From the IMG/VR virus record IMGVR_UViG_3300037780_000016, positions 27,688 through 91,687 of that record: DNA of 64,000 nt; one strand, written 5' to 3'. Positions 782 through 61,653 of this stretch are shown here, in pieces. The DNA comes from a virus. Under the pieces are notes generated by a model. That model searched no databases. It was given only the letters and a program-made list of their open reading frames with translations, and had not been told where the DNA came from. Within the stretch, counting starts at the first letter, position 1; each line of letters starts with the position of its first letter. A program made the position numbers and the translations under genes.

Positions 782-1581
782 TCGGGGCAGAAGAGCAGTA
801 TCTGGCCCTCCTGCGGACCATCTTCCACACAGGGGACAAGGTCGAGGAGCGAACCGGCGTGGGCACGCGCTCTATTCTGGGCGCACAGCTCCGCTATGAC
901 ATCTCCGAACGCTTCCCCCTCCTGACCACCAAGAAGGTCTACTGGAAGGGCGTCGCTGAGGAGCTGTTCTGGTTCCTGCGCGGGGCGACCAACGTGCGGC
1001 CCCTACAAGCGAAGGGCGTCCATATCTGGGACGCATGGGCCGACGAGAACGGTGATCTCGGCCCGGTCTACGGGGCGCAGTGGCGTAACTGGCGCAGCGG
1101 CGGGCTCCGGTATGATCAGGTGACACACCTGATGGACCAGCTCGAAGTGAACCCGGGTTCACGACGCCATATCCTGACGGCGTGGAATGTGGCCGACCTG
1201 AGCAACATGGCACTTCCGCCCTGTCACCTTCTGACCCAATTCCATGTCCGGGATGGCAAGCTCTCGGCTCATCTGTATCAGCGGTCGGCTGACATGTTCT
1301 TGGGCGTGCCCTTCAACATCGCCAGCTACTCGCTTCTGGTGTACCTCATGGCGTACAAGCTGGGGCTTCAGCCGGGTGAGCTGATCCACACGTTCGGCGA
1401 CGTTCACATCTATGAGAACCACATGGAACAGGTGAACGAGCAGTTGACCCGCGATCCTCGGCCTCTGCCGACCCTTGAGGTCTCCGGCGAGTTCGATGAC
1501 CTCTGTGAGGCGACCATGGACAATCTCACCCTGACTGGCTACGATCCGCACCCGGCGATCAAAGCTCCGGTCGCAGTATAA
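778..1581 (+). CDS. thyA: Thymidylate synthase
   Basis: RTGVGT, LGPVYGAQWR, catalytic LPPCH, QRSADMFLGVPFN, GDVHIY. Confidence 0.97.
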   Translation: MIGAEEQYLALLRTIFHTGDKVEERTGVGTRSILGAQLRYDISERFPLLTTKKVYWKGVAEELFWFLRGATNVRPLQAKGVHIWDAWADENGDLGPVYGAQWRNWRSGGLRYDQVTHLMDQLEVNPGSRRHILTAWNVADLSNMALPPCHLLTQFHVRDGKLSAHLYQRSADMFLGVPFNIASYSLLVYLMAYKLGLQPGELIHTFGDVHIYENHMEQVNEQLTRDPRPLPTLEVSGEFDDLCEATMDNLTLTGYDPHPAIKAPVAV

Positions 1582-1597
1582 ACGAGGAGGTGACATC

Positions 1598-1915
1598 ATG
1601 GGCATCAAAACCCCTGTCACTGTTGATGGCGTGAACGTCATTGACGCCGAAGGCAAGCGCATCGCTCTGTGCGGTAAGGACGACGGCATCGCCCGTACCG
1701 GTCCGGGTATCGCCAAAGAGATCGCTGCCGCCCTGAATGGCGAAGAGGCTCCGGCCCCTGAAGCCGAAGAAGCCCCTGTCGAGGAAGCCCCGGCAGAGGA
1801 CAGCTCTGACAAAGAGCTGGTGACCCGCCCCGACGAGGCTGCGGACGAGGCTGCGGACGAGGCTGAAGAAGCCGAAGCTCCGAAGTCGCGTCGTCGCAGT
1901 CGCAAGGGCTCGTAA
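1598..1915 (+). CDS. Hypothetical acidic protein with basic C-terminal tail
   Basis: GGAGG RBS; tail KSRRRSRKGS; contains about 3 copies of GACGAGGCTGCG (1832-1865). Confidence 0.75.
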   Translation: MGIKTPVTVDGVNVIDAEGKRIALCGKDDGIARTGPGIAKEIAAALNGEEAPAPEAEEAPVEEAPAEDSSDKELVTRPDEAADEAADEAEEAEAPKSRRRSRKGS

Positions 1916-1935
1916 CCTAGAAGGAACTTCTCGCC

Positions 1936-2172
1936 ATGCCCGAGAACAAATTCGCTCTTCGCTCCAAGACCATCTGGGGCGCGATCCTCGCCTTCATCGG
2001 CTTCGTCGGTCCGGCTCTGTTCGGCGTCGAGATCGATCCGGCGGAGATCGAAAACGCCAACGAGATGTTCGCGGCTGCTGCCACGGGTATCTCTGGTGTC
2101 GTCGGCTTCGTGCTGACGATCTGGGGCCGGTTCACTGCCAAAGGCAATGTGACCGCAACCCCGAACTCGTAA
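1936..2172 (+). CDS. Small 2-TM membrane protein, holin-like
   Basis: AAGGA RBS; SKTIWG start, two hydrophobic segments, IWGR end. Confidence 0.6.
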   Translation: MPENKFALRSKTIWGAILAFIGFVGPALFGVEIDPAEIENANEMFAAAATGISGVVGFVLTIWGRFTAKGNVTATPNS

Positions 2173-2180
2173 ACGGGAGT

Positions 2181-2723: not shown

Positions 2724-2726
2724 CCC

Positions 2727-3248
2727 ATGAACCGTAGGGAGGGGTGGTATCTCGCGGGAACGCCTTCGCAGCCGAACGCACCCGGGCTGCAAGAGGGCTC
2801 CGTATCCGACGTGGAAGTCTACATCAACCCGCACACCAACCAGTGTGTGGTCGATTACGCCGCCGTCAATGAGTACGGCGTCGAGGTGACCCGGACGATA
2901 CGGTCCCGTGGATGGACCCCTCCCCCCGCCTCTGTCAGCTCTGCCCATATGCAGATCGAGCAGAATATGGACACCCGCCAACGCCGAGTGACGATTGTCG
3001 CCCATGTCGATATGGACGAGGATTGCCTGATCAGTCAGTTGGAGCACTACGCCCCGGAACGCGTTCAGCAGCAAATGCAGGCTGCCATGAGCCGGGTGTT
3101 CGAAGAACTATTCCCCACCCCTGCGTATGCGCAGCCTGCGACCATGGTTCCCGAGCCTGACCTCCCTGAAGATGCACCTGTGAACCCGGGTTCACCCACG
3201 CCGGATGCCCCCGCTCCGAGCCGGATGATCGACTTCGACGGGGATTGA
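2727..3248 (+). CDS. Hypothetical protein (C-terminus RMIDFDGD)
   Basis: Closely follows the upstream gene; its stop overlaps the -35 box of P1. Confidence 0.7.
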   Translation: MNRREGWYLAGTPSQPNAPGLQEGSVSDVEVYINPHTNQCVVDYAAVNEYGVEVTRTIRSRGWTPPPASVSSAHMQIEQNMDTRQRRVTIVAHVDMDEDCLISQLEHYAPERVQQQMQAAMSRVFEELFPTPAYAQPATMVPEPDLPEDAPVNPGSPTPDAPAPSRMIDFDGD

Positions 3249-3306: not shown

Positions 3307-5031
3307 ATGTTCATAGGCATCAAGGTCGGCCAGCGCTCCGACTACTATTCCAGAAATGCAAAGACCCAAGGCTTCAGCGCCCCCTACTGGGCGTATAAGA
3401 ACTGGGTCTATATCGACTTCGACATGGACGACATCATCGGCACGTTTCGTGCTCCTCAAGTGGGGACGATGATGCCGCTGTTCCGCCATGAGAAGGCCCA
3501 AGAGATCATCGAACTGATCGAGGGGTATGGCTGGCATGTGGACGGTGACCGGTTCTGGCCGGTGGTCGAGGCGGTGGCCATGCGCCAATATCTCGGTAAC
3601 CGGGACAGCTCGCACAAGCAGCGCATAGCGACCCACAAAGAGCGCCCCGGTGAAGGCCGTCGCTTGGTCGGCGATAGCGCCCTCTCGGAGCGGTGGGACA
3701 GCGACATTTGCGTCATCTGCATGTCGGACGAAGAGGCCAAGAGCTTCCCGGCGTGGATGACCTACACACATTGGCGCGGCTATGAAGCGATTATTGTTCA
3801 GGCGCAGAGAGACCTGCCCAAGGCCACGACGATGCACCCGTCCATGGACAGCAACACCCGAATGCGGTCTCGCACAGGGTGGAGCGACATGGGCCTCGAC
3901 GCGGGACATCTGGCCGAATGGTTCGAGCGCCCTCTGGAACGTCGGCATGTCACGCTCTGGGATATGTACAAGCGTGCACGGGAGATCGCGGCGTTCGAGA
4001 TCGACAAGGGACCGTCGTCTGACGTGGAGGCCGGTTGCCGCCAATTGGCCAGCCGACCGCTCGCCCGGGAGGCCGTGAAGCAGACCAAACTGTCCGAGGA
4101 AGAGTGGGAGCGTAAGAAAGCCCACACGGTACGGGCAACCACCCGGAAGCGGGGCTTCGACTTCGAGGAGTTGGACAGCCTGCGTGAGGTGACCAGTTCG
4201 GCGACCCTGCCCGAAGGCTACGGCATGGGGTTCCCCGACCGGGTGCTGAACAACTGGAAGACGGTCGCCTATCTGCCTGTGGCTCACGACTTGTCCGGGT
4301 TCACCGATAAGACCCGCATGCACGAGAAGCGCTACATGGTGGGCAACGGTGGTTACGCCTACCAGAACATCACGCTCCCGGTCAGAACCAAGTCGTTTCC
4401 GGCGGACCCTGAGATCATCAATCTCAGGAATGTTCAGCGTCATGTGAGCAGCGACAAGGGCAGAGGCCGGGTGATCGCCCGCTTGCAACCGTTCGTCCTG
4501 ATCGGGCAGGGCCGGGGCACGAACGAGCCCATCGCTATGATCGGCTACGCGTTCCCCGTGGGTGGTGGCCCGGAAGAGCCGCGCAAGGATTACGTCTATG
4601 CGTTGAAAATCATCGAACTGGGGAACCTTCCCTCGACCCCGGCCACGGTGAACGTGTACGACCGTCAAGTCCGCCGAGCGTTCACCCGTGCACCGAGGCT
4701 GGCGCATGCAGCGAACATCTGCCTGAACTACCTGCGCGGTCTGGCGAAATCTGTGGAACCTCTTCGGGAGCCCGGTGCCAAGCTGGACAATCCGAGCTGG
4801 TCCCGCCGGGGTATCCAGTTTGCGGCCCCGCACTTGGGCATGTTCAAGTGGACCCGCCGACGGTACGGCTCCCGGCGTGGGAACGAGCCCTTGAACACTC
4901 GTGAGTGCATCCAGACTTTCGCCAAGGAAGTGTGCGGTCACGGCCTCTTTCGGGAGGTGGAGCGGGAAGAGGAGACCGTGAACCCGGGTGCAAATGTTCC
5001 GGTGCGACGGTTCGAACTCGACAATGACTGA
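3307..5031 (+). CDS. Hypothetical 574-aa protein (not a terminase)
   Basis: Long ORF after P1; no Walker or terminase motifs; C-terminus RRFELDND. Confidence 0.75.
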   Translation: MFIGIKVGQRSDYYSRNAKTQGFSAPYWAYKNWVYIDFDMDDIIGTFRAPQVGTMMPLFRHEKAQEIIELIEGYGWHVDGDRFWPVVEAVAMRQYLGNRDSSHKQRIATHKERPGEGRRLVGDSALSERWDSDICVICMSDEEAKSFPAWMTYTHWRGYEAIIVQAQRDLPKATTMHPSMDSNTRMRSRTGWSDMGLDAGHLAEWFERPLERRHVTLWDMYKRAREIAAFEIDKGPSSDVEAGCRQLASRPLAREAVKQTKLSEEEWERKKAHTVRATTRKRGFDFEELDSLREVTSSATLPEGYGMGFPDRVLNNWKTVAYLPVAHDLSGFTDKTRMHEKRYMVGNGGYAYQNITLPVRTKSFPADPEIINLRNVQRHVSSDKGRGRVIARLQPFVLIGQGRGTNEPIAMIGYAFPVGGGPEEPRKDYVYALKIIELGNLPSTPATVNVYDRQVRRAFTRAPRLAHAANICLNYLRGLAKSVEPLREPGAKLDNPSWSRRGIQFAAPHLGMFKWTRRRYGSRRGNEPLNTRECIQTFAKEVCGHGLFREVEREEETVNPGANVPVRRFELDND

Positions 5032-6889: not shown

Positions 6890-7823
6890 TTTCGACGACG
6901 CCTATGTGGCTCAAACGGAGGAGGAGTACCACGAGCACTATGTGTCTCGCATGGACCTCCTCCTGACGAACTGGCTCGATAACGACGAACGCCGGAAACT
7001 TGACCCCGGGTTCACTGGCGGTCTGGAATTCTCCCCGGAAGAGGCGGCTATCGCGGCCAGCCTGACCCAAGCCACCGAAGACGAAGCGGCTCTGGCCCTC
7101 TCTCGCTGGGATGTGGTTGAGCGCCAAGGCATCACCATCGCACGAATGAATGATTTCATCGCTGCGACCAACCGCTCCTTCGAGGACCGAGCCAAGACAC
7201 TGGAAGACGAGATGGAAGCCCTCGCCATGGGCTCCTTTGTTCTGGGCTCCGCGACGCGGACCCGGGCGGTGAAGTTCAGCCTGACCGACCTGCCGATTGT
7301 CGGCTCTGTCGTGAAGGCGTTCTCGTCTCTGGCGACGTGGGCCTTCTCCCGGTTCTTCAACCAGTTCGTGGCCCCCTCCCTCGAAGCGGAAATCCTGAAG
7401 GCCATCAACACGGCTGGTCTGGACAGTCCGGACTTCTCTGAGATCAGGGCTCTTCTGACCAAGCGGTTCCGGTCGTCTCCGTACTGGTTCACCGTGGCCA
7501 ACAACATCGCCAGCCGGGCGTATCACTATGGCTATGTGAAGAGCGCCGAAGCTCTGGGCTTCCGGACTGTCACGTACCGGGCGACCATCGACGAGGTCAC
7601 CTCTGAAATCTGCCAGTATCTGGACGGCATGGTGTTCCAAGTCGCGACTGTGATCCGGATCGCAGAACGCGCTGCGAACTCCTCCCCCGAAGAGATTATG
7701 GAACAGGCCCCCTTCCGGCCCGCCGAAGACATTGTCGGCAAGACCAACGCTGAGCTGGAACGCATGGGCGTCGTCGTACCTCCCCAACATTTCAACTGCC
7801 GGTCCACTCTCGAAGTGAATTGA
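6876..7823 (+). CDS. Head morphogenesis protein (SPP1 gp7 / Mu F like)
   Basis: ATIDEVTSEICQYLDG and PPQHFNCRS motifs; follows the portal. Confidence 0.88.
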   Translation: MCSSNFDDAYVAQTEEEYHEHYVSRMDLLLTNWLDNDERRKLDPGFTGGLEFSPEEAAIAASLTQATEDEAALALSRWDVVERQGITIARMNDFIAATNRSFEDRAKTLEDEMEALAMGSFVLGSATRTRAVKFSLTDLPIVGSVVKAFSSLATWAFSRFFNQFVAPSLEAEILKAINTAGLDSPDFSEIRALLTKRFRSSPYWFTVANNIASRAYHYGYVKSAEALGFRTVTYRATIDEVTSEICQYLDGMVFQVATVIRIAERAANSSPEEIMEQAPFRPAEDIVGKTNAELERMGVVVPPQHFNCRSTLEVN

Positions 7824-7837
7824 ACCCGGGTTCACTG

Positions 7838-10883: not shown

Positions 10884-10928
10884 TGAACCCGGGTTCAAAC
10901 TGGGAACTTCGAGAGAAGGATAAGGACC

Positions 10929-12876: not shown

Positions 12877-13583
12877 TGTCGAACCGTCCTGACTATATCA
12901 AGGTCCGGGCATTCGGACGCGACTTCGAGGATATCTTCTCCGCAATGGCCTATTGGGTCACGTGGATGTTCGGATACCAGAAGCGCTACATGAAGGAGTA
13001 TGAGCGCGGGGCCAAAAAGGCGATGAACACCGTCTACAAGGAGATGCGCAACCTGCACAGCTCCAAGTGGAACGGCCAGACCGTCAACCCGACCGACCGC
13101 CTTCAGAAACGTTCCGGCAAGGGCCTGAAGTCTATCGGCGACAGCCGGTATTTCGCGTACACCTCTGGCAAGGGCGCGACAGGGCGGAACTACGGCCAGA
13201 ACCAATTCACCGAGTTTGGCATGTCCACGGGGACCATGAGCATCCACGAGACTGGCGGAGTGATCACCCCCCGCCGGTCGAAGTATTTGACGGTGCCCCT
13301 CCCCGCCGCCCTGAACCGGGACGGCACCCCGAAGAAAAAGTCCGCCCGCAAGTGGAAGAATACGTTCGTGATCAAGTCCAAGAAGGGCAACCTGATCATC
13401 ATGCAAAACCGGGGACGCGGTAAGAAGCCGGTCCCGCTGTACGTCCTGAAGCCGTCGGTCCGCATTCGTCCCCGTCTGGGTATGAACAACGCGTGGGACC
13501 GGCATGTTGGCCTGTTCCTCTCCAAGTGGGGAAAGAAGGTCGCCGACACTATTGAGAGAGGCCCGTCGGGTTCCTCCGCGTGA
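12876..13583 (+). CDS. Neck / tail-completion protein (basic)
   Basis: RSGKGLKSI, IHETGG, PSVRIRPR; synteny. Confidence 0.7.
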   Translation: MSNRPDYIKVRAFGRDFEDIFSAMAYWVTWMFGYQKRYMKEYERGAKKAMNTVYKEMRNLHSSKWNGQTVNPTDRLQKRSGKGLKSIGDSRYFAYTSGKGATGRNYGQNQFTEFGMSTGTMSIHETGGVITPRRSKYLTVPLPAALNRDGTPKKKSARKWKNTFVIKSKKGNLIIMQNRGRGKKPVPLYVLKPSVRIRPRLGMNNAWDRHVGLFLSKWGKKVADTIERGPSGSSA

Positions 13584-13601
13584 ACCCGGGTGCAATAAGC
13601 C

Positions 13602-15310: not shown

Positions 15311-15493
15311 ATGTCGAGCAGTAAGAAGAGCATGACCGTGAAGACATATGTGGTCTTGCAGCGCGACAACATTCGGGGCACTGAGAGCGTCATCGCGGTC
15401 AAACTGACCGCAGACGCCGCCCAGAAGATTGTTGACAAGACCCCGGGAACGCGTGTGCAGAAGTTTATCGCCGATAAGCTCCCCCACGCGTGA
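15311..15493 (+). CDS. Small hypothetical protein (60 aa)
   Basis: AAGGA RBS; its stop is the TGA of palindrome 15491-15504. Confidence 0.6.
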   Translation: MSSSKKSMTVKTYVVLQRDNIRGTESVIAVKLTADAAQKIVDKTPGTRVQKFIADKLPHA

Positions 15494-15536
15494 ACCCGGG
15501 TTCACCCTTAGAGCCAGCAGCAGGAGAAAAGCAGTT

Positions 15537-34251: not shown

Positions 34252-34327
34252 AGGGCTTGAACCCGGGTGCAATCTCGCCTAGTGTCGGTCCCCATCTGGA
34301 AGCCGCAAGGCAACCCGGGCTTAACCC

Positions 34328-35329: not shown

Positions 35330-35333
35330 CTTG

Positions 35334-35362
35334 ACCCCGGGTTCACCGCCCGGGGTTTTCTC
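35334..35362 (+). terminator. Terminator built partly from a palindrome copy
   Basis: ACCCCGGG-TTCACCG-CCCGGGGT followed by TTTCTC. Confidence 0.55.
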
Positions 35363-38204: not shown

Positions 38205-38346
38205 TCCTGTCATCGACAGCTACTGTGAACTGTACACCCCTCCCCGCCTCACCGAAGCGGAATGGGAAAGCCTCTCCGCCGAAAGCGAGCGGATGATCCT
38301 CGACAACATCGCGGTCTACGTGGCCCGGTGTGAAGAAAGTTCTTGA
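38125..38346 (+). CDS. o-spanin (Rz1-like) lipoprotein
   Basis: GAGGAGG RBS; signal peptide MLKKLVML...VTAC with lipobox; overlaps the Rz-like gene. Confidence 0.7.
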   Translation: MLKKLVMLSMMTLSVTACATVSPVPSDPVIDSYCELYTPPRLTEAEWESLSAESERMILDNIAVYVARCEESS

Positions 38347-38363
38347 ACCCGGGTTCACGGGGG

Positions 38364-41987: not shown

Positions 41988-42044
41988 TCCTGCTGTCTAC
42001 AGGGAGGCGTGTATTCCAATGAACCGGGGTGCACGTCTTTCCTG

Positions 42045-45158: not shown

Positions 45159-47899
45159 GCCATTGGCAGCGCATGCAGAACTATCAGGCCCCCCATCCGG
45201 AGCACTGGGCTCGCCCGGTTCGCGGCTACAACGGGGAACAGGCCGAGGTTCTGGTCATCACCGACAACCAGAATATCGACGCCTACGACAGCCAGCAGGT
45301 GATGAGCAATCTGGAACTGAACACCATTGGCCGGGCACTGGGCGAAGCCGGGTACGAAAAGGGCAGCATCGTGACGGTGTGTCTGGCTCCGACCATCCCG
45401 CTCGACAACACCGGCTCCGAAGGCAAGAAGTGGGAGCACACCTCCCAGTATCTGGACGGGCTCGACGAATGGATTGAACGGGTCAACCCCCGCATGATCG
45501 TGCCTCTGGGCAACCTCGCCGCCCGAGCGGTGTTGGGCCGGGCCGTCAAGATCACCAAGGTCCGTGGACAGGTGCAGGAAAAAACCTACGAGGACGGCAC
45601 CAAGCGGTATGTCTTCCCGATGCTTGCACCCGGGTTCATTCTGCGCATCCCGGAACACCGCACCACATTCCTCGCCGACTGCGCGACGCTGGGCGTGATG
45701 CGGAAGAGCGACTACGACATCACACTCCTCGAACACGACACGAGCGGGTATGAATGGCGGAAGGACATCTCTGACCTGCTGGGAGAGAACGCCCCGCCCA
45801 TCGCCGCAGTCGATACCGAGACCACCGGCCTCGACGTGATCGACCCCCAGACCAAGCCGATCTGCGTGCAGATTACGGTCAGGCCGGGTCACGGCGTTGC
45901 GGTCCCGCTCATGTGGGAATACTGGCAGCGGGTCTTCCCGGGCAGATCGACAGATGAGTTCCACGCCGCCCGGACACAGGTGCGGGAGTTCATGGCTGAT
46001 CCGCGTATCCGGAAGGTCGGTCATAACCTGAAATTCGACCTGCACGTCCTGACCCGTGACGGCTTCCCGGTCGCGAACTTCTATCACGACACCCAGATGA
46101 TGGCATGGTGCGTGGACGAGAACCTGATGTCGAAGGCTCTGGCCGACCTGATCAAGATTTTCGTGCCGTCCATGGCCGGGTACTCGGATGAGTTCGACCT
46201 GAACACCGACAAGTCCAACATGATCGACGTCCACCCGGACGACATGCTGGACTACGGCTGCGGGGATACCGACGCCACCTTCCGGCTCATGCAGGTGCTG
46301 GACGCACAGATGCGGAAGGACTTGGGCCAGTACAACATCTATCGGCGTATCCAGCTCCCGGCTCTGGCAGCCTTCGCGGCGACCCTTGAGAACAATGGGG
46401 TGATGGTGAACCAAGACGCCCTTCGCCAGCTCCAAGGTGAGATCGAAGAGTTCTACGAGACCGAGCGCCGCTGGCTGATCCGCAACGCCCCGCGCAAGGT
46501 CCGGCTCAAGCACATGGACGCGGGCCTCTCCTTCACCCGTGATGCGTTCACCCGGGACATCCTGTTCTCGAAGGACGGCTTCAACCTGACCCCGGTCGTC
46601 TTCACCGACAGCACGAAGCGGATGCGTGACCCGGCGAAGCGTGTCCCCAGCGCCAGTGCCAAGACCCATATGCCGTATTTCGTCACGCACCCTGAGCACG
46701 GCGAATACATCCAGCGTCTCATCGGCCTGAAGAAGGCACACAAGATGATGACGACGTATGTCGGCAAGGAGAGCGAGGGCACCGGGTTCTGGAAGTACAT
46801 CCGCCCGGACAGCACGATCCACCCGCTCTATAATCTGCACGTCACCGACACAGGCCGGACGTCGTCTCAGAACCCGAACGGGCAGAACATCCCGAAGCGT
46901 GATCCCCGCTGGGCGAAACCGTATCGCCGGATGTTCTCGGCCCGCCCGGGGAAAGCGTTCGTGTCCTGTGACCTCTCGCAGGCCGAGCTGCGGATGGCCG
47001 CGTGGATGGCGATGGAGCCAGCCATGCTGAAGATTTACGCCGAGGGTGGTGACATTCACGCAGCGACCGCCGCTGCTGTAGCCCAAATCCCGGAAGAGGT
47101 GTTCAAGTCCTACAAGGGCAACGACACGGTCCTGATGGACGTGGCGAACCAAGTCCGAGGCTCAGGCGACTTCCTCCGAAAGCTCTCCCCCGGGAAGCGT
47201 CGGACAGCGACGCTGGGAGACTTCTTCAAGACCAACCGTCAGAACGCCAAGGCGGTGAACTTCGGGTTCATCTACGGCGCTATGGCCCCGACCTTCCAGC
47301 AGGTGGCGAAGATCGACTACGGCGTGGATTACACGCTGGAAGAAGCCGAGCAGGTCCGTGAACTGTATTTCCGCACCTACCCCAAGCTCCTCGACTGGCA
47401 CGAACAGATGAGAGCCATGGTGCACCGGGAAGGCGTGGTGAAGTCCATGATCGGTGGCACCCGTCATATGCAGTCGATCTACTCCAACGACCGGGGCATC
47501 GTCATGGCGGCGGAACGTCAGGCGATCAACTCCCCGATCCAGCGCATCGGCTCCGAGCTGGGTGTCATGGGTATCGTCCGGTACACGGCTCAGCTTGAGA
47601 TGCGTGGCCCGGGTCTCGGCTTCGCCTGCCCGACCATGTTCATTCACGATGACATCGTGACCGAGTGCGCCGAGGAAGACGCTGAGACCGTAGCGGGTCA
47701 GGTGAAGTGGGTTCTGGAAAACCCGCCGCTCCTGCAATGGTTCAACGCCCAATGCCCGATCCCTATCGCGTCTGACCCGGAGATCGGCCTGAACCTCGCC
47801 GACATGGAAGAGCGCGAGGATATCCAGCCGACCAAGCCGGAATGGTGGGACGACAACGAGCAGGAGGTTGTCACGGAGTGGCTGCAACAAGCCCGTTGA
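45155..47899 (+). CDS. polA: Family A DNA polymerase with N-terminal UDG-like domain and 3'-5' exonuclease
   Basis: Exonuclease DTETTG, HNLKFD, YGCGD. Polymerase DLSQAELR, KAVNFGFIYG, IHDD. UDG-like PRMIVPLGNLA..ITKVRG. Confidence 0.93.
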   Translation: MSHWQRMQNYQAPHPEHWARPVRGYNGEQAEVLVITDNQNIDAYDSQQVMSNLELNTIGRALGEAGYEKGSIVTVCLAPTIPLDNTGSEGKKWEHTSQYLDGLDEWIERVNPRMIVPLGNLAARAVLGRAVKITKVRGQVQEKTYEDGTKRYVFPMLAPGFILRIPEHRTTFLADCATLGVMRKSDYDITLLEHDTSGYEWRKDISDLLGENAPPIAAVDTETTGLDVIDPQTKPICVQITVRPGHGVAVPLMWEYWQRVFPGRSTDEFHAARTQVREFMADPRIRKVGHNLKFDLHVLTRDGFPVANFYHDTQMMAWCVDENLMSKALADLIKIFVPSMAGYSDEFDLNTDKSNMIDVHPDDMLDYGCGDTDATFRLMQVLDAQMRKDLGQYNIYRRIQLPALAAFAATLENNGVMVNQDALRQLQGEIEEFYETERRWLIRNAPRKVRLKHMDAGLSFTRDAFTRDILFSKDGFNLTPVVFTDSTKRMRDPAKRVPSASAKTHMPYFVTHPEHGEYIQRLIGLKKAHKMMTTYVGKESEGTGFWKYIRPDSTIHPLYNLHVTDTGRTSSQNPNGQNIPKRDPRWAKPYRRMFSARPGKAFVSCDLSQAELRMAAWMAMEPAMLKIYAEGGDIHAATAAAVAQIPEEVFKSYKGNDTVLMDVANQVRGSGDFLRKLSPGKRRTATLGDFFKTNRQNAKAVNFGFIYGAMAPTFQQVAKIDYGVDYTLEEAEQVRELYFRTYPKLLDWHEQMRAMVHREGVVKSMIGGTRHMQSIYSNDRGIVMAAERQAINSPIQRIGSELGVMGIVRYTAQLEMRGPGLGFACPTMFIHDDIVTECAEEDAETVAGQVKWVLENPPLLQWFNAQCPIPIASDPEIGLNLADMEEREDIQPTKPEWWDDNEQEVVTEWLQQAR

Positions 47900-48461: not shown

Positions 48462-48989
48462 ATGACGACAGGTAGCGATGATGATGTTGTCGTCCGTGGC
48501 GTTTTCGCCACCGACGGCAATGAACCCGGGTTCAAAGTTGACAGCGCCCTCGACAATCTCCGCGTGGTCAGCCCCAAGGAGACCGACAGTCTGGAACTCC
48601 CGGCAGTCGGCTCCAACGAGAAGGTGGTCGCTCAGCTCACCGACGAAGAGTGGGAAGACTTCCGCCGCCTGATGGCCATGCGTGACAAGGTCGTCGAGAA
48701 GGGCCGGATGATGGACGCAGAGATGATGCGCATTCAGGCCGACATGATCGCCAGCGGTGAGAAGGGCAAAATCCAGAACACCCCGTTCGGGACGGCTATC
48801 TTCCCGGGCGACGAAGAACTGGACCGTCTCCGCGACACCGGCTTCCACCGTGCGAACCAGATGTTCAAGGCGTTCCAGTCCCTGTTCTGGTATCAGATCG
48901 CCGAGAAGCACAACATCCACCACTTCACCATGAACGTCCGCCTTGGACGCAAACTGGTCACCACGGGGCTTCGGCAACAGAATGGATGA
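48462..48989 (+). CDS. Hypothetical protein
   Basis: Operon ORF with matching codon usage. Confidence 0.7.
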   Translation: MTTGSDDDVVVRGVFATDGNEPGFKVDSALDNLRVVSPKETDSLELPAVGSNEKVVAQLTDEEWEDFRRLMAMRDKVVEKGRMMDAEMMRIQADMIASGEKGKIQNTPFGTAIFPGDEELDRLRDTGFHRANQMFKAFQSLFWYQIAEKHNIHHFTMNVRLGRKLVTTGLRQQNG

Positions 48990-53496: not shown

Positions 53497-54634
53497 GCGT
53501 AAAAGACCTGAAGTGAACCCGGGTGCAAACAAGCGTGCATCCGACAAGCTCGCCGAGGACATCAACAAAGCCTTCGGCAGTCAGACAATCGTGAACGCGA
53601 GCAAGCTGCCGGACTTCCGGCATGTCCGCACCGGCATCTTCACGTTGGACGTCGCTCTGCTGGGCGGCATCCCGGAAGGGCTCGCCACATGCTTCTACGG
53701 CTGGCCTTCTGCCGGTAAGACCACGGCGGCGATCAAAGCCATCGCGGGCTTCCAGAAGAAGTACCCGAAGAAGCGCGTCCTGTTCGTGGACGTGGAAGGC
53801 ACCTTCGACCCTGTCTGGGCCGAGAAGTTCGGCGTGGATGTGGACGCTCTCATGATGGCGTACCCGGGGTCTGGCGAACAGGCCATCGATATCGTCGAGG
53901 CGGCTCTCCGTGCGAACGACATTTCGCTGGTGGTTCTGGACAGCATCGCCATGATGACGGCGACCAAGGAGATCGAGCAGTCCGCCGAAGACAAGACGAT
54001 GGGCACCCAAGGGGCGCTCCTGTCTCTGGCCTTCCGCAAGTGGACCAACACGATGACCACGCTCAAGCAGCAGGGCGTCACATCCCCGACCTTCATCTGT
54101 ATCAACCAGTTCCGGGAGAAGATGGTCCTGATGGGCGACAGCCGCACCCTCCCCGGCGGTCACGCTCAGCACTTCATGTACGCCGTCAAGGTGGAACTGA
54201 AGAACAAGGAAACCCTTGGCGAGACCGGTCAGGACGTGAAGGTGGTGGACTACAACGACCACTCCTTCAAGGTCACGAAGAACAAGACCGGCAATTCGAT
54301 CCGGGAAGGCGAGTATCTGATGTACCGCAATCCGGATGGGAGCCTTCCGGAAGGGTTCATCGACAGCGGCCAGACGGTGGTCAACTTCGCCCGCAAGTAC
54401 GGTCTGGTCACTGGGGACGGCGGCTCTGCGAAGCGGCTCATGCCGTACGCCGGGGGTCCGGACATTCCCAAGGACGGTCTGGTCTTCAAGCGGTTCCAAG
54501 ACATCGTGGACTGGCTGTATGAGGACTATGACGCCCGCATGGTGACACTGGAAGACGAGCTGATCTCCATCCATCGGGAGGCGATGAACCGCCCGAAGTA
54601 CGCGTGGAAGGATGCCGCCCCGGATGTTACGTAA
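53489..54634 (+). CDS. recA: RecA/UvsX-like recombinase
   Basis: LDVALLGGIP, GWPSAGKTT, DVEG, LDSIA, INQFR, PGG. Confidence 0.92.
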   Translation: MAKRKRPEVNPGANKRASDKLAEDINKAFGSQTIVNASKLPDFRHVRTGIFTLDVALLGGIPEGLATCFYGWPSAGKTTAAIKAIAGFQKKYPKKRVLFVDVEGTFDPVWAEKFGVDVDALMMAYPGSGEQAIDIVEAALRANDISLVVLDSIAMMTATKEIEQSAEDKTMGTQGALLSLAFRKWTNTMTTLKQQGVTSPTFICINQFREKMVLMGDSRTLPGGHAQHFMYAVKVELKNKETLGETGQDVKVVDYNDHSFKVTKNKTGNSIREGEYLMYRNPDGSLPEGFIDSGQTVVNFARKYGLVTGDGGSAKRLMPYAGGPDIPKDGLVFKRFQDIVDWLYEDYDARMVTLEDELISIHREAMNRPKYAWKDAAPDVT

Positions 54635-55917: not shown

Positions 55918-56522
55918 CTGATATGATTGTGAAGAAGATCGTCGAGCAGGAGCTGCCCTTCAAATGTGAAGTGCCGGTGCTCGGGCTTGACCCGTCCCTG
56001 AACGCGTTCGGGGTGTGTGAAATTCACCGCAACAAGATGACGACCTACGTCCTGTCCCCGACCGCCAAAGGCCCGGAACGTCTCCTGATGTTCGGGGAGT
56101 GGTTTAACGCGGAGTTCCAGTCGAAATGGGGCGCGGTCGCGTTCGAGGACTATGCGTTCAGCCGGGCGAACCAAGCTCACCAGCTCGGAGAGTTAGGGGG
56201 GGTCTTGCGAACCCAGTTATACATATCTTCCGTCCCGGCGGTGTATGTGGTCGGACCCGGGCAGTTGAAGAAGTTCGCCACCGGCAAGGGCTCAGGCCCT
56301 AAGACCGGGGTGATGTTGGCGTTGCTGAAGCGCTGGGGTGTTGAGGTGCAGGACGATAACCAAGCAGACGCCACGGCCCTCGCCCTGATCGCCGCCCAGA
56401 AGCTCGGCTTCGGTATTGACCTCCCCAAGGCACATATGGAAGTATTCGAGGGTAAGACACCCATCAAGCAGTTCGCCCAACGTCCGGCCCCCGAGGCACG
56501 GAAGCGAACCCGTCCCCGTTGA
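55914..56522 (+). CDS. RuvC-like resolvase
   Basis: LGLDPSL, FEDY, LKKFATGKG, DNQADA. Confidence 0.85.
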   Translation: MTDMIVKKIVEQELPFKCEVPVLGLDPSLNAFGVCEIHRNKMTTYVLSPTAKGPERLLMFGEWFNAEFQSKWGAVAFEDYAFSRANQAHQLGELGGVLRTQLYISSVPAVYVVGPGQLKKFATGKGSGPKTGVMLALLKRWGVEVQDDNQADATALALIAAQKLGFGIDLPKAHMEVFEGKTPIKQFAQRPAPEARKRTRPR

Positions 56523-56541
56523 ACCCGGGTGCAAAAGGTGG

Positions 56542-56570
56542 TTGACTTACGATCTGGGATAGCCTAGATT
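56542..56570 (+). promoter_or_regulatory. Promoter P5 with conserved spacer
   Basis: TTGACT-TACGATCTGGGATAGCC-TAGATT, 8 bp after palindrome 56520-56533. Confidence 0.85.
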
Positions 56571-56603: not shown

Positions 56604-57944
56604 ATGAAAGGAAGCAGCATGAGCGATACCCAAATTCCGCAGCAGGGTGACAAGGTCACCTTCAAAGCCTACGGCGACGACAGCGTGGAAGCGCTCCTCA
56701 CCGCAGGTTCTGAGTACGAGGTCCACACGTCCAGCCCGGACGGCGACGGCTTCGTCCTTGAGGTCTTCGTGACCGACGACAAAGGCCAGCGTCGCCTAGA
56801 CGGTGACGGTCAGCCGATGCTGGACACGGTGTTCGACACTGAGATCGAACCGTGGACCCCGCCGGTCGCCGAGGAGACCGAAACCGAGACCGAGACCGAG
56901 ACCGAGGCGGAAGCCGAAGTCGATATCTCGAAGATGAAGAAGGCCGAGCTGGTGGAACACGCCAAGTCTCTGGGCCTGAAGTTCGACAGCAAGATCACCG
57001 TGAAGGCTCTTCGCGAACTGATCACCAACCCGCCCTCCGCCGAGGAAGCCGACGAGGCCGAAGAGGCTGAAGCCGCTGCCCCTGTGGAAGACGAGACCCC
57101 GGCTGAAACGGACGACGCTGATGTCGAACCGGAAGCCGAAGCTGAAGCGGCTGAGACCGCCGAAGCGGCCCCGCCCCCGGCCACCCCGGGTGTGCGCAAC
57201 ACCGACACCGAAGCAGTCCGTGACCTTGTCACCAAGGGCGACCTTCTGGCTTCCGCTCAGGAACTGGTGAACAAGTCCAACGAGACGGACTTCACTCTGG
57301 GCGGCGTTCTGGCTCACATCTACAATCAGCGTGTCTACGTGACGCTGGGTGACCAGTACGAGGGCAAGTCCGGCTTCGAAGCGTACTGCGAGCAGGAACT
57401 CGGCGTCCGTTACCGGAAGGCGATGTACCTGAAGCAGATGTACGAGTTCTTCACCGCCGCTGGCACGGACGAGAAGCGTCTGTCCAAGATCGGCTGGACG
57501 AAGGCGCGTGAGATCATGACCGGCAACGTCAATGACGTGGACGCCATGCTCGACTTCGCCGAGAAGAACACCCGTGATGCCCTGATCGCCGAGATCGGCA
57601 AGACCAAGCAGTCTCTGGACGGTTCGTCCGGCGACACGGTCGAGAAGCGCAAGTTCACCTTCACCCTGACCGGCATGGCCGGGGCGAACGCTGAGACGGC
57701 GCTGAACACGGCGAAGCAGCTCACGGGGTCCGACGACAACAACGTGGCCTTCGAGCACATCATGACCGAGTGGGCGACCACGTCCGAGGTCGAGCTTCCG
57801 CTGGAAGACGTGCTCGCTTCTATCGAGGCCCGTTACAAGGTGTCCCTCCGCCAGATGACCGAAGAGGAAATCGCGGCTGTGGAACAGAACGCCGATGCCG
57901 AGGACGACCAGTCCGAAGCGGAAGCGGAACAGGCTGCGGCCTGA
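56604..57944 (+). CDS. Acidic multidomain putative DNA-binding protein (Rho-N/SAP-like + DUF3102-like helical domain)
   Basis: ISKMKKAELVEHAKSLGL...KALRELI; LGGVL...FEAYCEQELGVRYRKAMYL; (ET)n repeat at 56874-56903. Confidence 0.65.
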   Translation: MKGSSMSDTQIPQQGDKVTFKAYGDDSVEALLTAGSEYEVHTSSPDGDGFVLEVFVTDDKGQRRLDGDGQPMLDTVFDTEIEPWTPPVAEETETETETETEAEAEVDISKMKKAELVEHAKSLGLKFDSKITVKALRELITNPPSAEEADEAEEAEAAAPVEDETPAETDDADVEPEAEAEAAETAEAAPPPATPGVRNTDTEAVRDLVTKGDLLASAQELVNKSNETDFTLGGVLAHIYNQRVYVTLGDQYEGKSGFEAYCEQELGVRYRKAMYLKQMYEFFTAAGTDEKRLSKIGWTKAREIMTGNVNDVDAMLDFAEKNTRDALIAEIGKTKQSLDGSSGDTVEKRKFTFTLTGMAGANAETALNTAKQLTGSDDNNVAFEHIMTEWATTSEVELPLEDVLASIEARYKVSLRQMTEEEIAAVEQNADAEDDQSEAEAEQAAA

Positions 57945-58068: not shown

Positions 58069-59928
58069 ATGGCGAACTTCCAGTATCATTGCGCCTCCCT
58101 TGGGCGCGAAGCATCTATCGAGATCGATCACCAGCGCGACGATAATCTGACCGACTTCGGTCGCGCCACTCTTGAGGATCGGTATCTCCTGCCGGGCGAG
58201 ACCCCGCAAACTCTTTTCGGTCGTGTGGCCTGCTACTTCGCACAGGACGAAGACCACGCCCAACGGCTCTACGATTACATCTCCAACCTGTGGTTCATGC
58301 CCGCGACGCCCATCCTCTCGAATGGCGGTACGGCGCGGGGGATGCCGATCTCGTGCTTCCTGAACCAAGTCGGAGACAGTCTCCAAGACATCGCGGACAC
58401 GTGGAACGAGAATATCTGGCTGGCCTCCCGGGGCGGCGGCATTGGCACCCACTGGGGCGGCGTCCGCTCAATCGGTGAGCCGGTCGGGATGAACGGCAAG
58501 TCCTCCGGCGTGGTTCCGTTCATGAAGGTCATGGACAGCATGACCCTCGCCATCTCGCAGGGCTCTCTGCGTCGCGGCTCAGCCGCCGTCTACCTCGACA
58601 TCGACCACCCGGAAATCGTCGAGTTCATCAACATCCGGAAGCCGGAAGGCGACGTGAACCGCCAGTGCCTGAATGTGCACAACGGCGTCGTCGTATCGGA
58701 CAGCTTCATGGAAGCCGTGAAGGCCGGGGAAGACTATGACCTGATCAGCCCGAAGACCGGCGAGGCAGTCGGCACAGCGAACGCCCGCGAGGTCTGGCAA
58801 CGTCTGCTGGAAGCCCGGGTCCAGACTGGCGAGCCTTACATCCTGTTCAAGGACACCGTGAACGCTCAGCGCCCGGACGTTTATCAGCACCACGGTCTGG
58901 ACGTGAAGCAATCCAACCTCTGCTCTGAGATCATGCTGCACACTGGCCCGGACCAGCGCAACCATGAGCGCACCGCCGTCTGTTGCCTGTCCAGCCTCAA
59001 TGCGGCCACGGCCCGGGAGTGGTTCGGTAACGAGGAGTTCATCGCCGACGTGATGCGGTTCCTCGACAATGTCATGACCGACTTCATCACCAGAGCGTCT
59101 GATGAACCCGGGTTCAAGAACGCGGTCTACTCCGCCACCCGGGAACGCTCCATCGGTCTGGGCATGATGGGCTGGCACTCCTACCTTCAGCAGAACAACA
59201 TCGCTTTCGAGACGCCCATGGCGAAGTCGCTGAACCTCCGTATGTGGAAGTGGTTACGTACGGCAGCCGACGACGCGAACCGCAATCTGGCCGAAGAGCT
59301 GGGTCCGTGCCCGGACGCCGAAGACGCAGGCATGATGAAGCGCTTCAGCCACGTCTTCGCCATCGCTCCGACCGCGTCCATCAGCATCATCTGCGGCGGC
59401 ACCTCCGCCGGTATCGAACCCCTCCCCGCCAACGCCTACAACCACAAGACCCTGTCCGGCTCCTTCATGGTGAAGAACCCGGAACTGGACAAGGTGCTCC
59501 GGAAGTACGCCAAAGAGCGCGGGGTCAATGGCCGCTGGACGGCTGCGCAGTGGCGCTCGATTGTCGCCCACGAGGGATCGGTCCAGCATCTGGATTATCT
59601 GACCGACGACGAGAAGTTCCTGTTCCGGACCTTCCGCGAGATCGACCAGCGCTGGGTCGTCGAGCATGCCGGTGATCGCCAGCCGTACATCTGTCAGGGC
59701 CAGTCCGTGAACATCTCCCTGCCCGGGGACGTCCACAAGGCCGAGCTTCACGCCCTGCATTGGCGGGCATGGGAGCACAAACTCAAGGCGCTCTACTACG
59801 TCCGCTCTACGTCCGTTCGCCGGGCCGACAGCGTCGCAGGCGAGATGCCGACCGAGGACGTCCGGTCCTCCACTGGCCTTGCACCGAGCGCGGTGTCCAT
59901 GGCCGATGAATGTCTTTCTTGCCAGTGA
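58069..59928 (+). CDS. nrdA: Ribonucleotide reductase class I alpha subunit (no ATP cone)
   Basis: PATP, ISCF, SNLCSEI, APTAS, QGQS, LYY, C-terminal CLSCQ; alternative start at 58057. Confidence 0.95.
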   Translation: MANFQYHCASLGREASIEIDHQRDDNLTDFGRATLEDRYLLPGETPQTLFGRVACYFAQDEDHAQRLYDYISNLWFMPATPILSNGGTARGMPISCFLNQVGDSLQDIADTWNENIWLASRGGGIGTHWGGVRSIGEPVGMNGKSSGVVPFMKVMDSMTLAISQGSLRRGSAAVYLDIDHPEIVEFINIRKPEGDVNRQCLNVHNGVVVSDSFMEAVKAGEDYDLISPKTGEAVGTANAREVWQRLLEARVQTGEPYILFKDTVNAQRPDVYQHHGLDVKQSNLCSEIMLHTGPDQRNHERTAVCCLSSLNAATAREWFGNEEFIADVMRFLDNVMTDFITRASDEPGFKNAVYSATRERSIGLGMMGWHSYLQQNNIAFETPMAKSLNLRMWKWLRTAADDANRNLAEELGPCPDAEDAGMMKRFSHVFAIAPTASISIICGGTSAGIEPLPANAYNHKTLSGSFMVKNPELDKVLRKYAKERGVNGRWTAAQWRSIVAHEGSVQHLDYLTDDEKFLFRTFREIDQRWVVEHAGDRQPYICQGQSVNISLPGDVHKAELHALHWRAWEHKLKALYYVRSTSVRRADSVAGEMPTEDVRSSTGLAPSAVSMADECLSCQ

Positions 59929-59942
59929 ATAGGGGAGCCATC

Positions 59943-60950
59943 ATGGCACTTGACCATCCGCAGAAATTTTACAAGCCCTTTCGGTATCCTTGGGCCTACG
60001 ACATGTGGAAACAGCAGCACCAAGTCCACTGGATGCCGGACGAGGTTCCGATGGCCGGGGACATCTCCGACTGGAAGGACAAACTCACGGACGCCGAGCG
60101 TGGCCTGCTGACGCAAATCTTCCGCTTCTTCACTCAGGCCGACGTCGAGGTGGGCGACTGCTACCACCGGCACTACCTGAACGTCTTCCAGCCGACCGAA
60201 GTGAAGATGATGCTGACCGCGTTCTCCGACATGGAGACGATCCACATGGCGGCGTACTCGCATCTGCTGGACAGCCTGAAGATGCCTGAAGACACCTATC
60301 GCCAGTTCCTCGACTATGAGGTGATGGTCGAGAAATACGACTACATGCAGGGCTTCCGTCACGACGATCCGCTCAGCGTGGCCGAGACCATGGCAGTCTT
60401 CGCCGGGTTCACCGAGGGCCTTCAGCTCTTCGCCAGTTTCGCGATCCTGCTGAACTTTCCGCGCCACAACAAGATGAAGGGCATGGGCCAGATCATCGCG
60501 TGGTCTGTGCGTGACGAGAGCCTGCACTGTGAGGGCGTATCCAAGCTCTTCCGGACGTGGGTCGAAGAGAAGCTGGACGCCCGGGACTGCGAACGCCTCA
60601 AGGCCCGCATCTATGAGCACCTTGAGCACATCATCCATATCGAGGACAAGTTCATCGACCTCGCCTTCTCCGGCGGAGAGATCGACGGGCTGACCCCGCA
60701 AGAGGTCAAGGACTATATCCGCTACATCGCGAACATGCGGTTGCAGCAGCTCAGCGTCCCGGGCCTCCTCCAACTGGAACCGGTGTACCCGGTGTTTGAG
60801 AACCCGATCCCGTGGATCGTGGAACAGCTCAATGGGTTGGAGTTCGTGAACTTCTTCGAGAACCGAGCCACGGACTACGCCAAGGGCGCGACCCGGGGCG
60901 AATGGCACGACGTCTGGGATGATGTCGATGGAGCCAAGGCGGCAGAATAG
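59943..60950 (+). CDS. nrdB: Ribonucleotide reductase class I beta subunit
   Basis: FFTQAD, METIH..AY, TEGLQLF, RDESLH, NFFE. Confidence 0.95.
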   Translation: MALDHPQKFYKPFRYPWAYDMWKQQHQVHWMPDEVPMAGDISDWKDKLTDAERGLLTQIFRFFTQADVEVGDCYHRHYLNVFQPTEVKMMLTAFSDMETIHMAAYSHLLDSLKMPEDTYRQFLDYEVMVEKYDYMQGFRHDDPLSVAETMAVFAGFTEGLQLFASFAILLNFPRHNKMKGMGQIIAWSVRDESLHCEGVSKLFRTWVEEKLDARDCERLKARIYEHLEHIIHIEDKFIDLAFSGGEIDGLTPQEVKDYIRYIANMRLQQLSVPGLLQLEPVYPVFENPIPWIVEQLNGLEFVNFFENRATDYAKGATRGEWHDVWDDVDGAKAAE

Positions 60951-60966
60951 CACACAGGAGAGCACC

Positions 60967-61653
60967 ATGATCGGAGCACTCGTAAAAGCATTTCGGCGGT
61001 ATGAGCACACGGTCCCGTACTGTGACGCGAACAACCGCTACCACCGTTCCCGCAAGCGGACGTTCATGGAGCGCCTGCTGCTCACGGTCACCGATGGTTT
61101 GCCTATGCGGATCATCGGTGACTACCCTGTCCCCCGCAGCGTGGACAGTTCGCACCCCTTCAAGCCGTACATGGAGCGGTATTCGATCTTCGAGCTGTTC
61201 GGCTGGAACATCTACCTGCACCGCTTCCTTCGCGGCGACCCGGACCGGTCGGTGCACGATCACCCTTTCGACGGCTTCAGCTTCATCCTGACTGAGGGGT
61301 ACACTGAGGAAGTCCCGATCCAGTACAAAGACGGCACGTACGCCATCGACAGGGACGGCTTGATCCTCGACCGGAAGAAGCGCCGATGGTTCAACTGGGT
61401 TCCGTCCAAGAAGTTCCACGTCGTGCGAATGAACCCGGGTTCACGACCGATCTGGACCCTGTTCATCCACGGCCCCCGGAAGAAGAGCTGGGGATTTTTG
61501 CAGGTGGACAAGGACGAGACCGTCTACGTCGAGACCTATCCCGGCTCCGAGGATTTGCACCGTCGGGACAACTGGCGCAAGTCCGAGCCGACCGGACGAA
61601 CCTACAACGACGACGCAGGGTACGGAGGGTATAATGCACGAGACTGCTTCTAA
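60967..61653 (+). CDS. Cupin-like protein
   Basis: YLHRF..D..RS.HDHPF...GY.EE...FH...WTLF..GP..SWGF. Confidence 0.7.
   Translation: MIGALVKAFRRYEHTVPYCDANNRYHRSRKRTFMERLLLTVTDGLPMRIIGDYPVPRSVDSSHPFKPYMERYSIFELFGWNIYLHRFLRGDPDRSVHDHPFDGFSFILTEGYTEEVPIQYKDGTYAIDRDGLILDRKKRRWFNWVPSKKFHVVRMNPGSRPIWTLFIHGPRKKSWGFLQVDKDETVYVETYPGSEDLHRRDNWRKSEPTGRTYNDDAGYGGYNARDCF

Follow-up and report, generated by a model that had tools for sequence, protein, structure and literature searches.

Why should a phage tile its genome with one 14-bp palindrome? The question is raised by a stretch of 64,000 nucleotides (nt) of the IMG/VR virus record IMGVR_UViG_3300037780_000016 (G000:C1:27688-91687), hereafter called the window, in which the palindrome TGAACCCGGGTTCA recurs within and between genes. 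The entire record, to which we refer as G000, has 91,687 bp, a terminal repeat of 127 bp, and a G+C content of 60.6%; gene calling resulted in 111 genes, of which 110 are on the plus strand, and one extra gene crosses the record end. The genomes compared were seven that bear the motif, namely, G000, Aeromonas phage HJ05, Pseudomonas phage SM1 (Samunavirus), Rhizobium phage L338C, Vibrio phage VspDsh_2, Stenotrophomonas phage DLP_3, and Rhodobacter phage RcZahn, and two that are free of it, Gordonia phage Evaa (first 50 kb only) and Maribacter phage Molly_1. The palindrome arrays found across the related phages point to an undescribed genome-wide DNA-binding system. Our leading reading, held tentatively and at somewhat less than an even chance, is that the palindromes are docking sites on double-stranded DNA for a dimeric, clade-conserved phage DNA-binding protein, the likeliest candidate being the predicted reader g107.

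The frequency of the palindrome is far above expectation. (i) Expected counts in the window, derived from dinucleotide shuffles, were 0.00 for exact copies, of which 10 were found, and 0.27 for copies with up to 2 mismatches, of which 25 were found (13 with one mismatch and 2 with two). (ii) The whole 91.7-kb genome contains 16 exact copies of TGAACCCGGGTKCA and 45 copies with up to 2 mismatches, whereas approximately none would be expected. (iii) Conservation among the G000 copies is limited to the 14 bp, and the flanking bases hold almost no information. At motif position 12, T occurs in 26 copies and G in the remaining 19, and the hybrid form TGAACCCGGGTGCA is present in 17 exact copies genome-wide, its mirror form in 3. 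(iv) As a codon-aware null, we used 300 synonymous-codon shuffles that kept every protein and the codon usage of each gene. Sites lying wholly within coding sequences numbered 8, 20, and 22 at 0, up to 1, and up to 2 mismatches, respectively, compared to shuffle means of 0.09, 0.76, and 3.9. This excess indicates selection on the DNA word. Together with the presence of copies in all three frames and between genes, it shows that selection targets the DNA word rather than the peptide. Chance, a mobile element, and an assembly artefact are ruled out by the shuffles, the codon null, and the unconserved flanks.

These data also bear on a preliminary description of the window, which had listed 26 copies (10 perfect, 13 with one mismatch, and 3 looser). 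The 10 and the 13 were recovered, and 25 coordinates match, whereas the 26th, looser copy is absent at up to 2 mismatches. The same description had stated that a given 14-mer is expected far less than once in 64 kb, in agreement with our shuffles, and its argument that frame independence reveals selection on the DNA and not on the peptide is borne out by the enrichment over the codon-aware null. It had further assigned the TGA stop codons of genes to five copies; this was confirmed for those at 7821, 13581, 15491, and 56520, whereas the TGA at 38344 ends only an unselected open reading frame of 90 amino acids (aa).

The sites are also placed in a nonrandom manner. The comparison with random placement that had been proposed in the preliminary description showed that spacing in G000 is regular, with a coefficient of variation (CV) of 0.59 as compared to 0.97 for random positions (P = 0.0002) and no gap above 5 kb. 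Gaps in the window measured 561 to 4993 bp, in line with the approximately 0.6 to 5 kb given earlier. Regular spacing was likewise observed in HJ05, SM1, L338C, VspDsh_2, and DLP_3 (CV of 0.43 to 0.59 versus approximately 0.95 for random placement; P <= 0.005) and was not recovered in RcZahn with its 8 sites. In addition, there is a clear bias toward gene boundaries. Eight of the 45 G000 sites form a TGA stop codon, approximately 15 are intergenic, and 22 lie wholly within genes, compared to 89% of random positions. Eighteen of the 45 are found within 40 nt of a gene boundary, and at this distance the fraction amounts to 40 to 53% of the sites in G000, HJ05, and SM1 versus 14% of random positions. 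Long genes are also tiled, as illustrated by the 11-kb tail gene g80, which has three copies 3.7 to 4.6 kb apart. A TTGAC-like -35 box begins 3 to 11 nt downstream of 9 of the 45 sites (5% at random) and upstream of none, and most of these nine have a -10-like hexamer 17 nt further. Finally, hybrid sites have a preferred orientation on the coding strand, with A opposite G favored over C opposite T by 19:4 in G000 and by 59:18 overall. The preliminary description had noted that the TGCA variant points the same way in 8 of 9 cases, which corresponds to 8 copies of TGAACCCGGGTGCA in the window (plus 1 of TGAACCGGGGTGCA) versus 1 of TGCACCCGGGTTCA. The biases in boundary and promoter placement and in orientation add a regulatory or polar aspect that was little stressed there.

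In the early region, which is located outside the window, sites are denser, with approximately one per 1.2 kb. A recurrent early promoter cassette is in some cases preceded by a terminator-like hairpin, in which a site is paired with another, incomplete copy. Seven such cassettes are present at 1025-8079 (genome coordinates, upstream of the window). They consist of a TTGCGT-like -35 box, a 17-nt spacer, and (T)ATTCTAAGAAT, and they continue with GTAAGGCAA and a common GGGAGAC ribosome-binding site. In five of the seven, the palindrome is 8 to 31 nt upstream of the -35 box.

The motif is not peculiar to one phage: related phages that share the genome architecture of G000 carry their own spellings of a clade-wide family with the consensus TG[AC]AA[YR]-N1-2-[YR]TT[GT]CA, each with its own dispersed palindrome. 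These versions are TGAACCCGGGTKCA in G000 (45 sites), TGCAACYGGTTGCA in HJ05 (25 sites), TGCAARCGYTTGCA in SM1 (32 sites), TGCAAC-N1-2-GTTGCA in L338C (approximately 65 sites), GCAATTAATTGC in VspDsh_2 (22 sites), and TGCAATYRATTGCA in both DLP_3 (25 sites) and RcZahn (8 sites in 101.6 kb). Versions of the TGAAAT, TGCAAT, or TGCAAC type are carried by approximately 25 IMG/VR loci. The positions of the sites change from genome to genome; several are common to G000 and its nearer relative L338C, and few to HJ05 and SM1. None of nine family spellings was met in a phage context in the literature searched, and the DLP3 paper does not mention palindromes. The central dinucleotide alternates between CG and either TG or CA in a strand-biased manner (HJ05, DLP_3, and IMG/VR loci L084-L097), with 18 CA, 6 TG, and 1 CG in DLP_3, which could reflect a tolerated center or CpG decay.

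A lineage-specific spelling is of relevance to the nature of the reader, since it argues against a conserved host protein, be it a LacI/GalR-type repressor or a host restriction, modification, or repair system. Most family members do fit TG-N-AA-N-CG-N-TT-N-CA with a central CG, a consensus that resembles the generic LacI/GalR operator TGNAANCGNTTNCA, and the alternation of this CG with TG or CA is as expected of methylated CpG. However, positions 5 and 10 of the G000 word do not follow the LacI-type pattern, and both Alpha- and Gammaproteobacteria are among the hosts. The phage proteins scanned gave no Pfam match to the LacI family. In bacterial genomes the exact 14-mer was scattered singly among the matches listed, in some cases in tRNA T-arm-like sequence, and no stretch was enriched; an abundant host repeat was thus not seen among these matches. 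The lone local cluster is in a mobile island, and the conserved operator position at g107 described below fits a phage regulator better. We therefore regard a host reader as very improbable. Among IMG/VR contigs, no other stretch had more than one exact copy of the 14-mer.

The island in question belongs to Ruegeria halocynthiae (NZ_FNNP01000001.1; L177:3060-5670). It contains 4 to 5 copies of TGHACCCGGGTTCA in 2.6 kb, with none elsewhere in the 4.2-Mb genome, along with a P4-type integrase, a reverse transcriptase, a helix-turn-helix (HTH) protein, and an HNH protein. It may be a satellite-like or defense element that uses the same word, and the cluster is a weak hint as to the host group.

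In a different type of reading, the active element would be a hairpin formed by one particular strand, either in mRNA or in single-stranded DNA; it could serve as an intercistronic RNA element recognized by a phage factor or as a priming or loading signal on the lagging-strand template. This is the main rival, although we judge it improbable. In its favor, all genes are on one strand, many sites fall in the gap that separates a stop codon from the following ribosome-binding site, and the 59:18 preference for A opposite G is on the coding strand. L338C keeps the arms, while the center varies in sequence and in length (1 to 2 nt) like a loop; a spacing of 2 to 4 kb is similar in scale to Okazaki fragments; and a copy is found just downstream of a candidate origin in three phages. 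However, the stem would comprise only 5 to 6 bp, approximately half of the G000 sites have an internal A-G or C-T mismatch, and in SM1 the A-C form (11 sites) is about as common as the G-U form (10 sites). Several sites are upstream of promoters, from which they would not be transcribed, at a constant distance of 8 nt from the -35 box; some of the terminator-like contexts in the early region of G000 need a second partial copy for a stable hairpin, and sites are tiled inside long genes.

We return to a dimeric phage protein as the reader, for which g107 is the likeliest candidate. (i) Among the genes of unknown function, g107 has homologues in all seven motif-bearing genomes. None was detected in Molly_1 or in Evaa, of which the first 50 kb were examined, and there was no motif in the stretches examined of either. 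(ii) A site is located 77 to 144 nt upstream of the g107 start in six of the seven, namely, G000, HJ05, SM1, L338C, DLP_3, and RcZahn. This site, at the end of a RuvC-like gene, is the best-conserved site position in the clade, and exactly 8 nt separate its end from the -35 box in G000, L338C, DLP_3, and RcZahn. Since RcZahn retains it despite having only 8 sites in total, the comparison suggests that the g107 operator may be the older element, from which the genome-wide array expanded later. (iii) In the orthologues, a long linker of low complexity joins a small N-terminal domain to a conserved helical C-terminal domain. The linker is rich in Ala, Lys, and Pro and histone H1-like in HJ05, SM1, L338C, and VspDsh_2, and the C-terminal domain (YRKAMYL...IGWTKA in g107) has invariant YR.A...Y and GW.K residues across orthologues. 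The sequence YLKQMY is found in G000 g107 only, as opposed to YLIxIY in the relatives, and the divergent half-site TGAACC is likewise found in G000 only; this pairing may be a hint to specificity. (iv) Two copies of the g107 C-terminal domain were modeled as a symmetric dimer with a score of 0.59, whereas the best of three controls scored 0.00. Of 30 proteins solved as same-chain pairs, 20 attained this score, as did 1 of 23 single-chain structures, counts that are only a rough guide here since our own alignment was used. Contact agreement between runs was at least 82%, and the predicted local distance difference test (pLDDT) value of the partner was at least 74; in the model, the YRKAMYL helix is mostly outside the dimer interface.

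Several observations weigh against g107 or against a dimer on duplex DNA. g107 had no match in Pfam, among PDB sequences, or in a family-profile search, and the only hints of a DNA-binding fold come from language-model comparisons that pointed to DUF3102 and Plasmid_parti_N at 0.88 to 0.90, which are leads only. Capsid, portal, DnaB, helicase g100, g102, and RecA share the distribution of g107, so the co-occurrence of g107 with the motif is confounded by phylogeny. VspDsh_2 lacks a site upstream of its g107, and the linker of G000's own g107 is acidic rather than basic. L338C accepts 13- and 14-bp forms with a free center, which is awkward for a rigid dimer, and a symmetric reader alone does not explain the 59:18 orientation of hybrid sites.

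An obvious alternative candidate is the ParB-like protein g49 (genome 21077-21886), perhaps together with the ParB-N fusion g50, for which the palindromes would be loading sites similar to parS or to Noc-binding sites (NBS) and at which a CTP-dependent clamp loads and slides. The AlphaFold model of g49 (pLDDT of 82) aligns over residues 4 to 152 to ParB, Noc, and KorB (VIA-align; Z of 12, root mean square deviation of 2.5 to 3.2); g49 contains the GxxRxxA motif (GHTRLEA) as well as NPR and DNK boxes, matches phrog_620 at 4e-44, and has a closest relative with 79% identity. All IMG/VR loci with a full-length g49 homologue have family palindromes, whereas loci with the N-terminal domain only have none, and the published Noc site TATTTCCC-GGGAAATA has the same CCCGGG center (PMC7383237). 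Nevertheless, we regard a ParB-type reader as very improbable. DLP_3 (25 sites), VspDsh_2 (22 sites), and RcZahn (8 sites) have neither g49 nor g50, and the approximately 65 sites of L338C are accompanied only by distant N-domain proteins that appear to be split; g49/g50 was thus rejected as the common reader, as four motif-bearing genomes have no full-length g49 or g50. Given such relatives, the co-occurrence of g49 and palindromes in IMG/VR loci is a property of one subclade. Conversely, g50 and g51 are present in Evaa along with a distant g49, yet the 50 kb examined of this phage contain no palindrome. The structural alignment ends after an acidic helix that matches the first HTH helix only, no recognition helix is apparent beyond it, and the C-terminal domain gave a best Z of 3.6 (VIA) and no Foldseek match at an E value of <= 0.001. 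The conserved DCL...DCL helix residues show no code with the motif class. As to a ParA-type partner, there was no CbiA/ParA match among approximately 80 proteins scanned with Pfam, a set that comprised a minority of the small early genes g1 to g47; a related-locus search with g50 alone gave no match.

g49 is part of an operon located 5' of the terminase gene (L048:7078-10232; genome 21077-24234), followed by the 530-aa g50 (phrog_5475) and the S-adenosylmethionine (SAM)-methyltransferase-like g51. This operon is common to HJ05, SM1, and the otherwise unrelated Evaa and is not tied to the palindrome. In L338C, the adjacent genes gp086 and gp087 (L146:7100-7737) jointly match the N-terminal half of a ParB-like protein, possibly as a frameshift or a split gene; they adjoin a gene similar to 3'-phosphoadenosine-5'-phosphosulfate reductase and two further ParB-like genes.

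Other readers were considered. The O-like initiator g92 is unlikely to be the reader, as in three phages this type of initiator comes with a set of iterons of its own that differ from the palindrome. Within g92 (42150-43322), a candidate replication origin at window positions 42550-42620 combines the iteron-like repeats AGAACCACCGGAA / AGGACCACCGAA with an adjacent AT-rich stretch. This layout of the initiator gene is also found in HJ05 and SM1, with clearer, different iterons, and in all three phages the palindrome is beside the candidate origin. The 94-aa g54, a stand-alone OmpR/PhoB-type winged helix encoded just after the large terminase gene (L048:13010-13291; genome 27009-27293) with a palindrome in its own gene, gave no hit in either HJ05 or SM1 with the thresholds applied and was rejected. 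A LexA reading (GAAC-N4-GTTC) of the G000 word was discarded since the relatives do not keep GAAC/GTTC, and sigma-54 and NtrC-like readings were discarded since their spacing does not fit.

The site beside the candidate origin also raises the possibility that the palindromes are recombination or replication hot spots, that is, secondary origins or targets of RuvC-like, EndoVII-like, or Cas4-like nucleases that drive recombination-dependent replication or localized nicks. The phage does encode RecA, a PD-(D/E)XK exonuclease, and RuvC-like and resolvase-like proteins, and recombination between repeat copies has been inferred for Cluster O phages (PMC4351075). Yet the initiator has its own, different iterons, 14 bp are too short for cruciform extrusion, nothing links any nuclease to the motif, and the fixed promoter-proximal spacing is left unexplained. 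Overall, there seems to be little chance that hot spots account for the array.

Taken together, dyad symmetry, regular tiling, and lineage-specific spellings fit a dimeric, phage-encoded reader that acts genome-wide. The preliminary description had likewise proposed a dimeric phage protein; its suggestion that this protein coats or marks the genome stays at the level of inference. By analogy, the array is likely to act as a genome-wide operator, organizer, or silencer. In the mechanism that we propose, g107 would bind an operator in front of its own promoter, with 8 nt between the end of this operator and the -35 box; the operator would be the ancestral and best-conserved site. The operator word would then have been multiplied genome-wide until no stretch longer than approximately 5 kb was without a copy, with copies placed at gene boundaries where this is cheap and written into long genes where it is not. 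The bound dimers may act chromosome-wide by blocking or tuning transcription units; alternatively, they may seed a nucleoprotein coat via the long low-complexity linker. We infer both the binding of g107 to the site and the effect of this binding. Among the relatives of G000, both DLP3 and DLP5 are temperate phages. DLP5 was obtained as a phagemid, and lysogeny of this kind has been proposed for DLP3 by its authors, which makes whole-genome silencing or plasmid-type maintenance plausible in this clade. A bolder version, which we consider unlikely but worth stating, is that the g107 family would be a new class of phage chromatin protein, in which a dimer with an H1-like linker, nucleating at lineage-specific palindromes placed approximately every 2 to 4 kb, silences or compacts the chromosome, possibly underlies the plasmid-prophage state of DLP5, and has sites that were perhaps copied by satellite-like islands, such as that of Ruegeria with its 4 to 5 copies, which would respond to the same protein.

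The sites in the window, together with g107 and its promoter, are compiled in Table 1.

Table 1. Palindromic sites, g107, and its putative promoter in the window (window coordinates)
Feature	Position	Strand	Context
Site, exact	1148..1161		Within thymidylate-synthase-like g57
Site, exact	3181..3194		Within g61, close to C terminus
Site, TGCA variant	4979..4992		g62, aa 558 of 574
Site, 1 mismatch	7001..7014		g64 (MuF-like), aa 42
Site, exact	7821..7834		TGA stop of g64; promoter-like TTGACC-17-TAGTTT begins 3 nt downstream
Site, exact	10884..10897		Intergenic, 3' of capsid gene g67
Site, TGCA variant	13581..13594		TGA stop of g71
Site, exact	15491..15504		TGA stop of g74
Site, TGCA variant	20094..20107		Within tail protein L-like g78
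Site, 1 mismatch	20655..20668		g78/g79 gap
Site, TGCA variant	24747..24760		Within 3706-aa tail gene g80, aa 931
Site, 2 mismatches	28437..28450		Within g80, aa 2161
Site, 1 mismatch	32999..33012		g80, aa 3682 of 3706
Site, TGCA variant	34258..34271		Intergenic, g81/g82
Site, 1 mismatch	35332..35345		Intergenic, g83/g84; left part pairs with downstream CCCGGGGT, then T-run; terminator-like
Site, TGCA variant	37100..37113		Within deoxynucleoside monophosphate (dNMP)-kinase-like g85
Site, exact	38344..38357		5' of AAA+ gene g87; TTGCAC-17-TATAAA box begins 6 nt downstream
Site, 2 mismatches	42020..42033		5' of initiator gene g92; TTGACC box begins 11 nt downstream
Site, exact	42791..42804		Within O-like initiator g92, 150-240 nt 3' of iteron-like repeats and AT-rich stretch (candidate origin)
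Site, reverse TGCA variant	45625..45638		Within UDG-PolA gene g95
Site, exact	48521..48534		g97, aa 20
Site, TGCA variant	53514..53527		RecA gene g103, aa 9; L338C has a site at the same position
Site, TGCA variant	56520..56533		TGA stop of RuvC-like g106; candidate g107 operator; best-conserved clade position
Promoter-like TTGACT-17-TAGATT	56542..56570	+	Begins 8 nt after the 56520 site
g107, candidate reader	56619..57941	+	Small N-terminal domain, low-complexity linker, helical C-terminal domain; predicted homodimer
Site, exact	59103..59116		Within ribonucleotide reductase large-subunit gene g108
Site, exact	61430..61443		Within g110

Two further features of the genome were observed. The first is a gene set similar to that of DNA base-hypermodification phages (window 859-1578, 36796-37962, 45155-47896, and 61634-62872; L047:15448-16023), which includes a thymidylate synthase homologue, a dNMP-kinase-like protein, PolA with an N-terminal UDG-like domain, an asparagine-synthase-like protein, and a 2-oxoglutarate (2OG)-Fe(II) oxygenase. 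The second is a single gene for a tail protein of 3706 aa (window 21956-33076), the L338C homologue of which has 1651 aa.

Dispersed arrays of a single site word are known in few phages, where their logic is poorly understood. The array described here extends over a broad clade, among whose members are cultivable phages of Pseudomonas aeruginosa, Stenotrophomonas, Rhizobium, Vibrio, Aeromonas, and Rhodobacter. It offers naturally varying spellings, a spacing that is regular in six genomes, site numbers graded from 8 to approximately 65, and a concrete candidate reader with a conserved putative autoregulatory operator, which makes it directly testable why a phage tiles its genome with one palindrome. 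The data also indicate that a neighboring ParB-like gene is an unsafe default answer for such arrays.

There are parallels to several known systems, and the stoperator and Noc analogies drawn in the preliminary description are apt as analogies. (i) The stoperators of Cluster A mycobacteriophages are asymmetric, strictly oriented sites read by the immunity repressor (L5 gp71) of an integrating temperate phage. The G000 array shares with them dozens of copies of one 13- to 14-bp word genome-wide, many of them in short intergenic gaps or over start and stop codons, as well as an orientation relation to transcription; for stoperators, there is a genome-wide effect of one phage protein. In contrast, the G000 site is palindromic, only hybrid copies show a bias of 3:1, and spacing is regular; no integrase was found among the G000 genes scanned. 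(ii) KorB, a ParB-family CTPase of the IncP plasmid RK2, has 12 OB sites. In this system a 13-bp palindrome is also dispersed, with some copies just upstream of the -35 box and others far away, and one dimeric protein exerts global control. However, the ParB-like protein here fails co-occurrence, and the 12 sites on RK2 compare with 25 to 65 in the phages. (iii) The plasmid-prophage N15 has four dispersed palindromic sopC centromere repeats and a SopA/SopB pair. Palindromic sites are thus likewise scattered in a phage genome, and the relatives DLP5 and DLP3 are temperate, but no ParA-type ATPase was found among the G000 proteins scanned. (iv) The NBS of Noc is a 14- to 16-bp palindrome with a CCCGGG center that is scattered on the Bacillus chromosome and nucleates a spreading protein (PMC7383237, PMC8429893). 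A palindrome with this center is spread over the whole replicon in G000 as well, whereas Noc is a ParB paralogue that tethers to the membrane in cell division, and there is no sign of such a protein or function in G000. (v) Cluster O mycobacteriophages contain a 17-bp dyad repeat, TGTTCGG-N3-CCGAACA, in more than 30 nearly invariant copies per genome, which are found between genes, near gene starts, and inside genes, with a variable spacer and a slight orientation preference (PMC4351075). In that study, a dimeric protein is proposed, no function could be assigned, and neither comparative evidence for a reader nor lineage-specific spellings were reported (PMC4351075). This unexplained repeat resembles the G000 array in its many palindromic copies per genome, in and between genes, and differs in sequence, geometry (7-3-7), host phylum, and phage lineage. 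Because co-occurrence contradicts the ParB route, stoperators lack the symmetry of the present site, and sequence and geometry differ from those of the Cluster O repeat, the array appears to be a member of none of these systems while working, by analogy, like stoperators, KorB-OB, Noc-NBS, and the Cluster O repeat.

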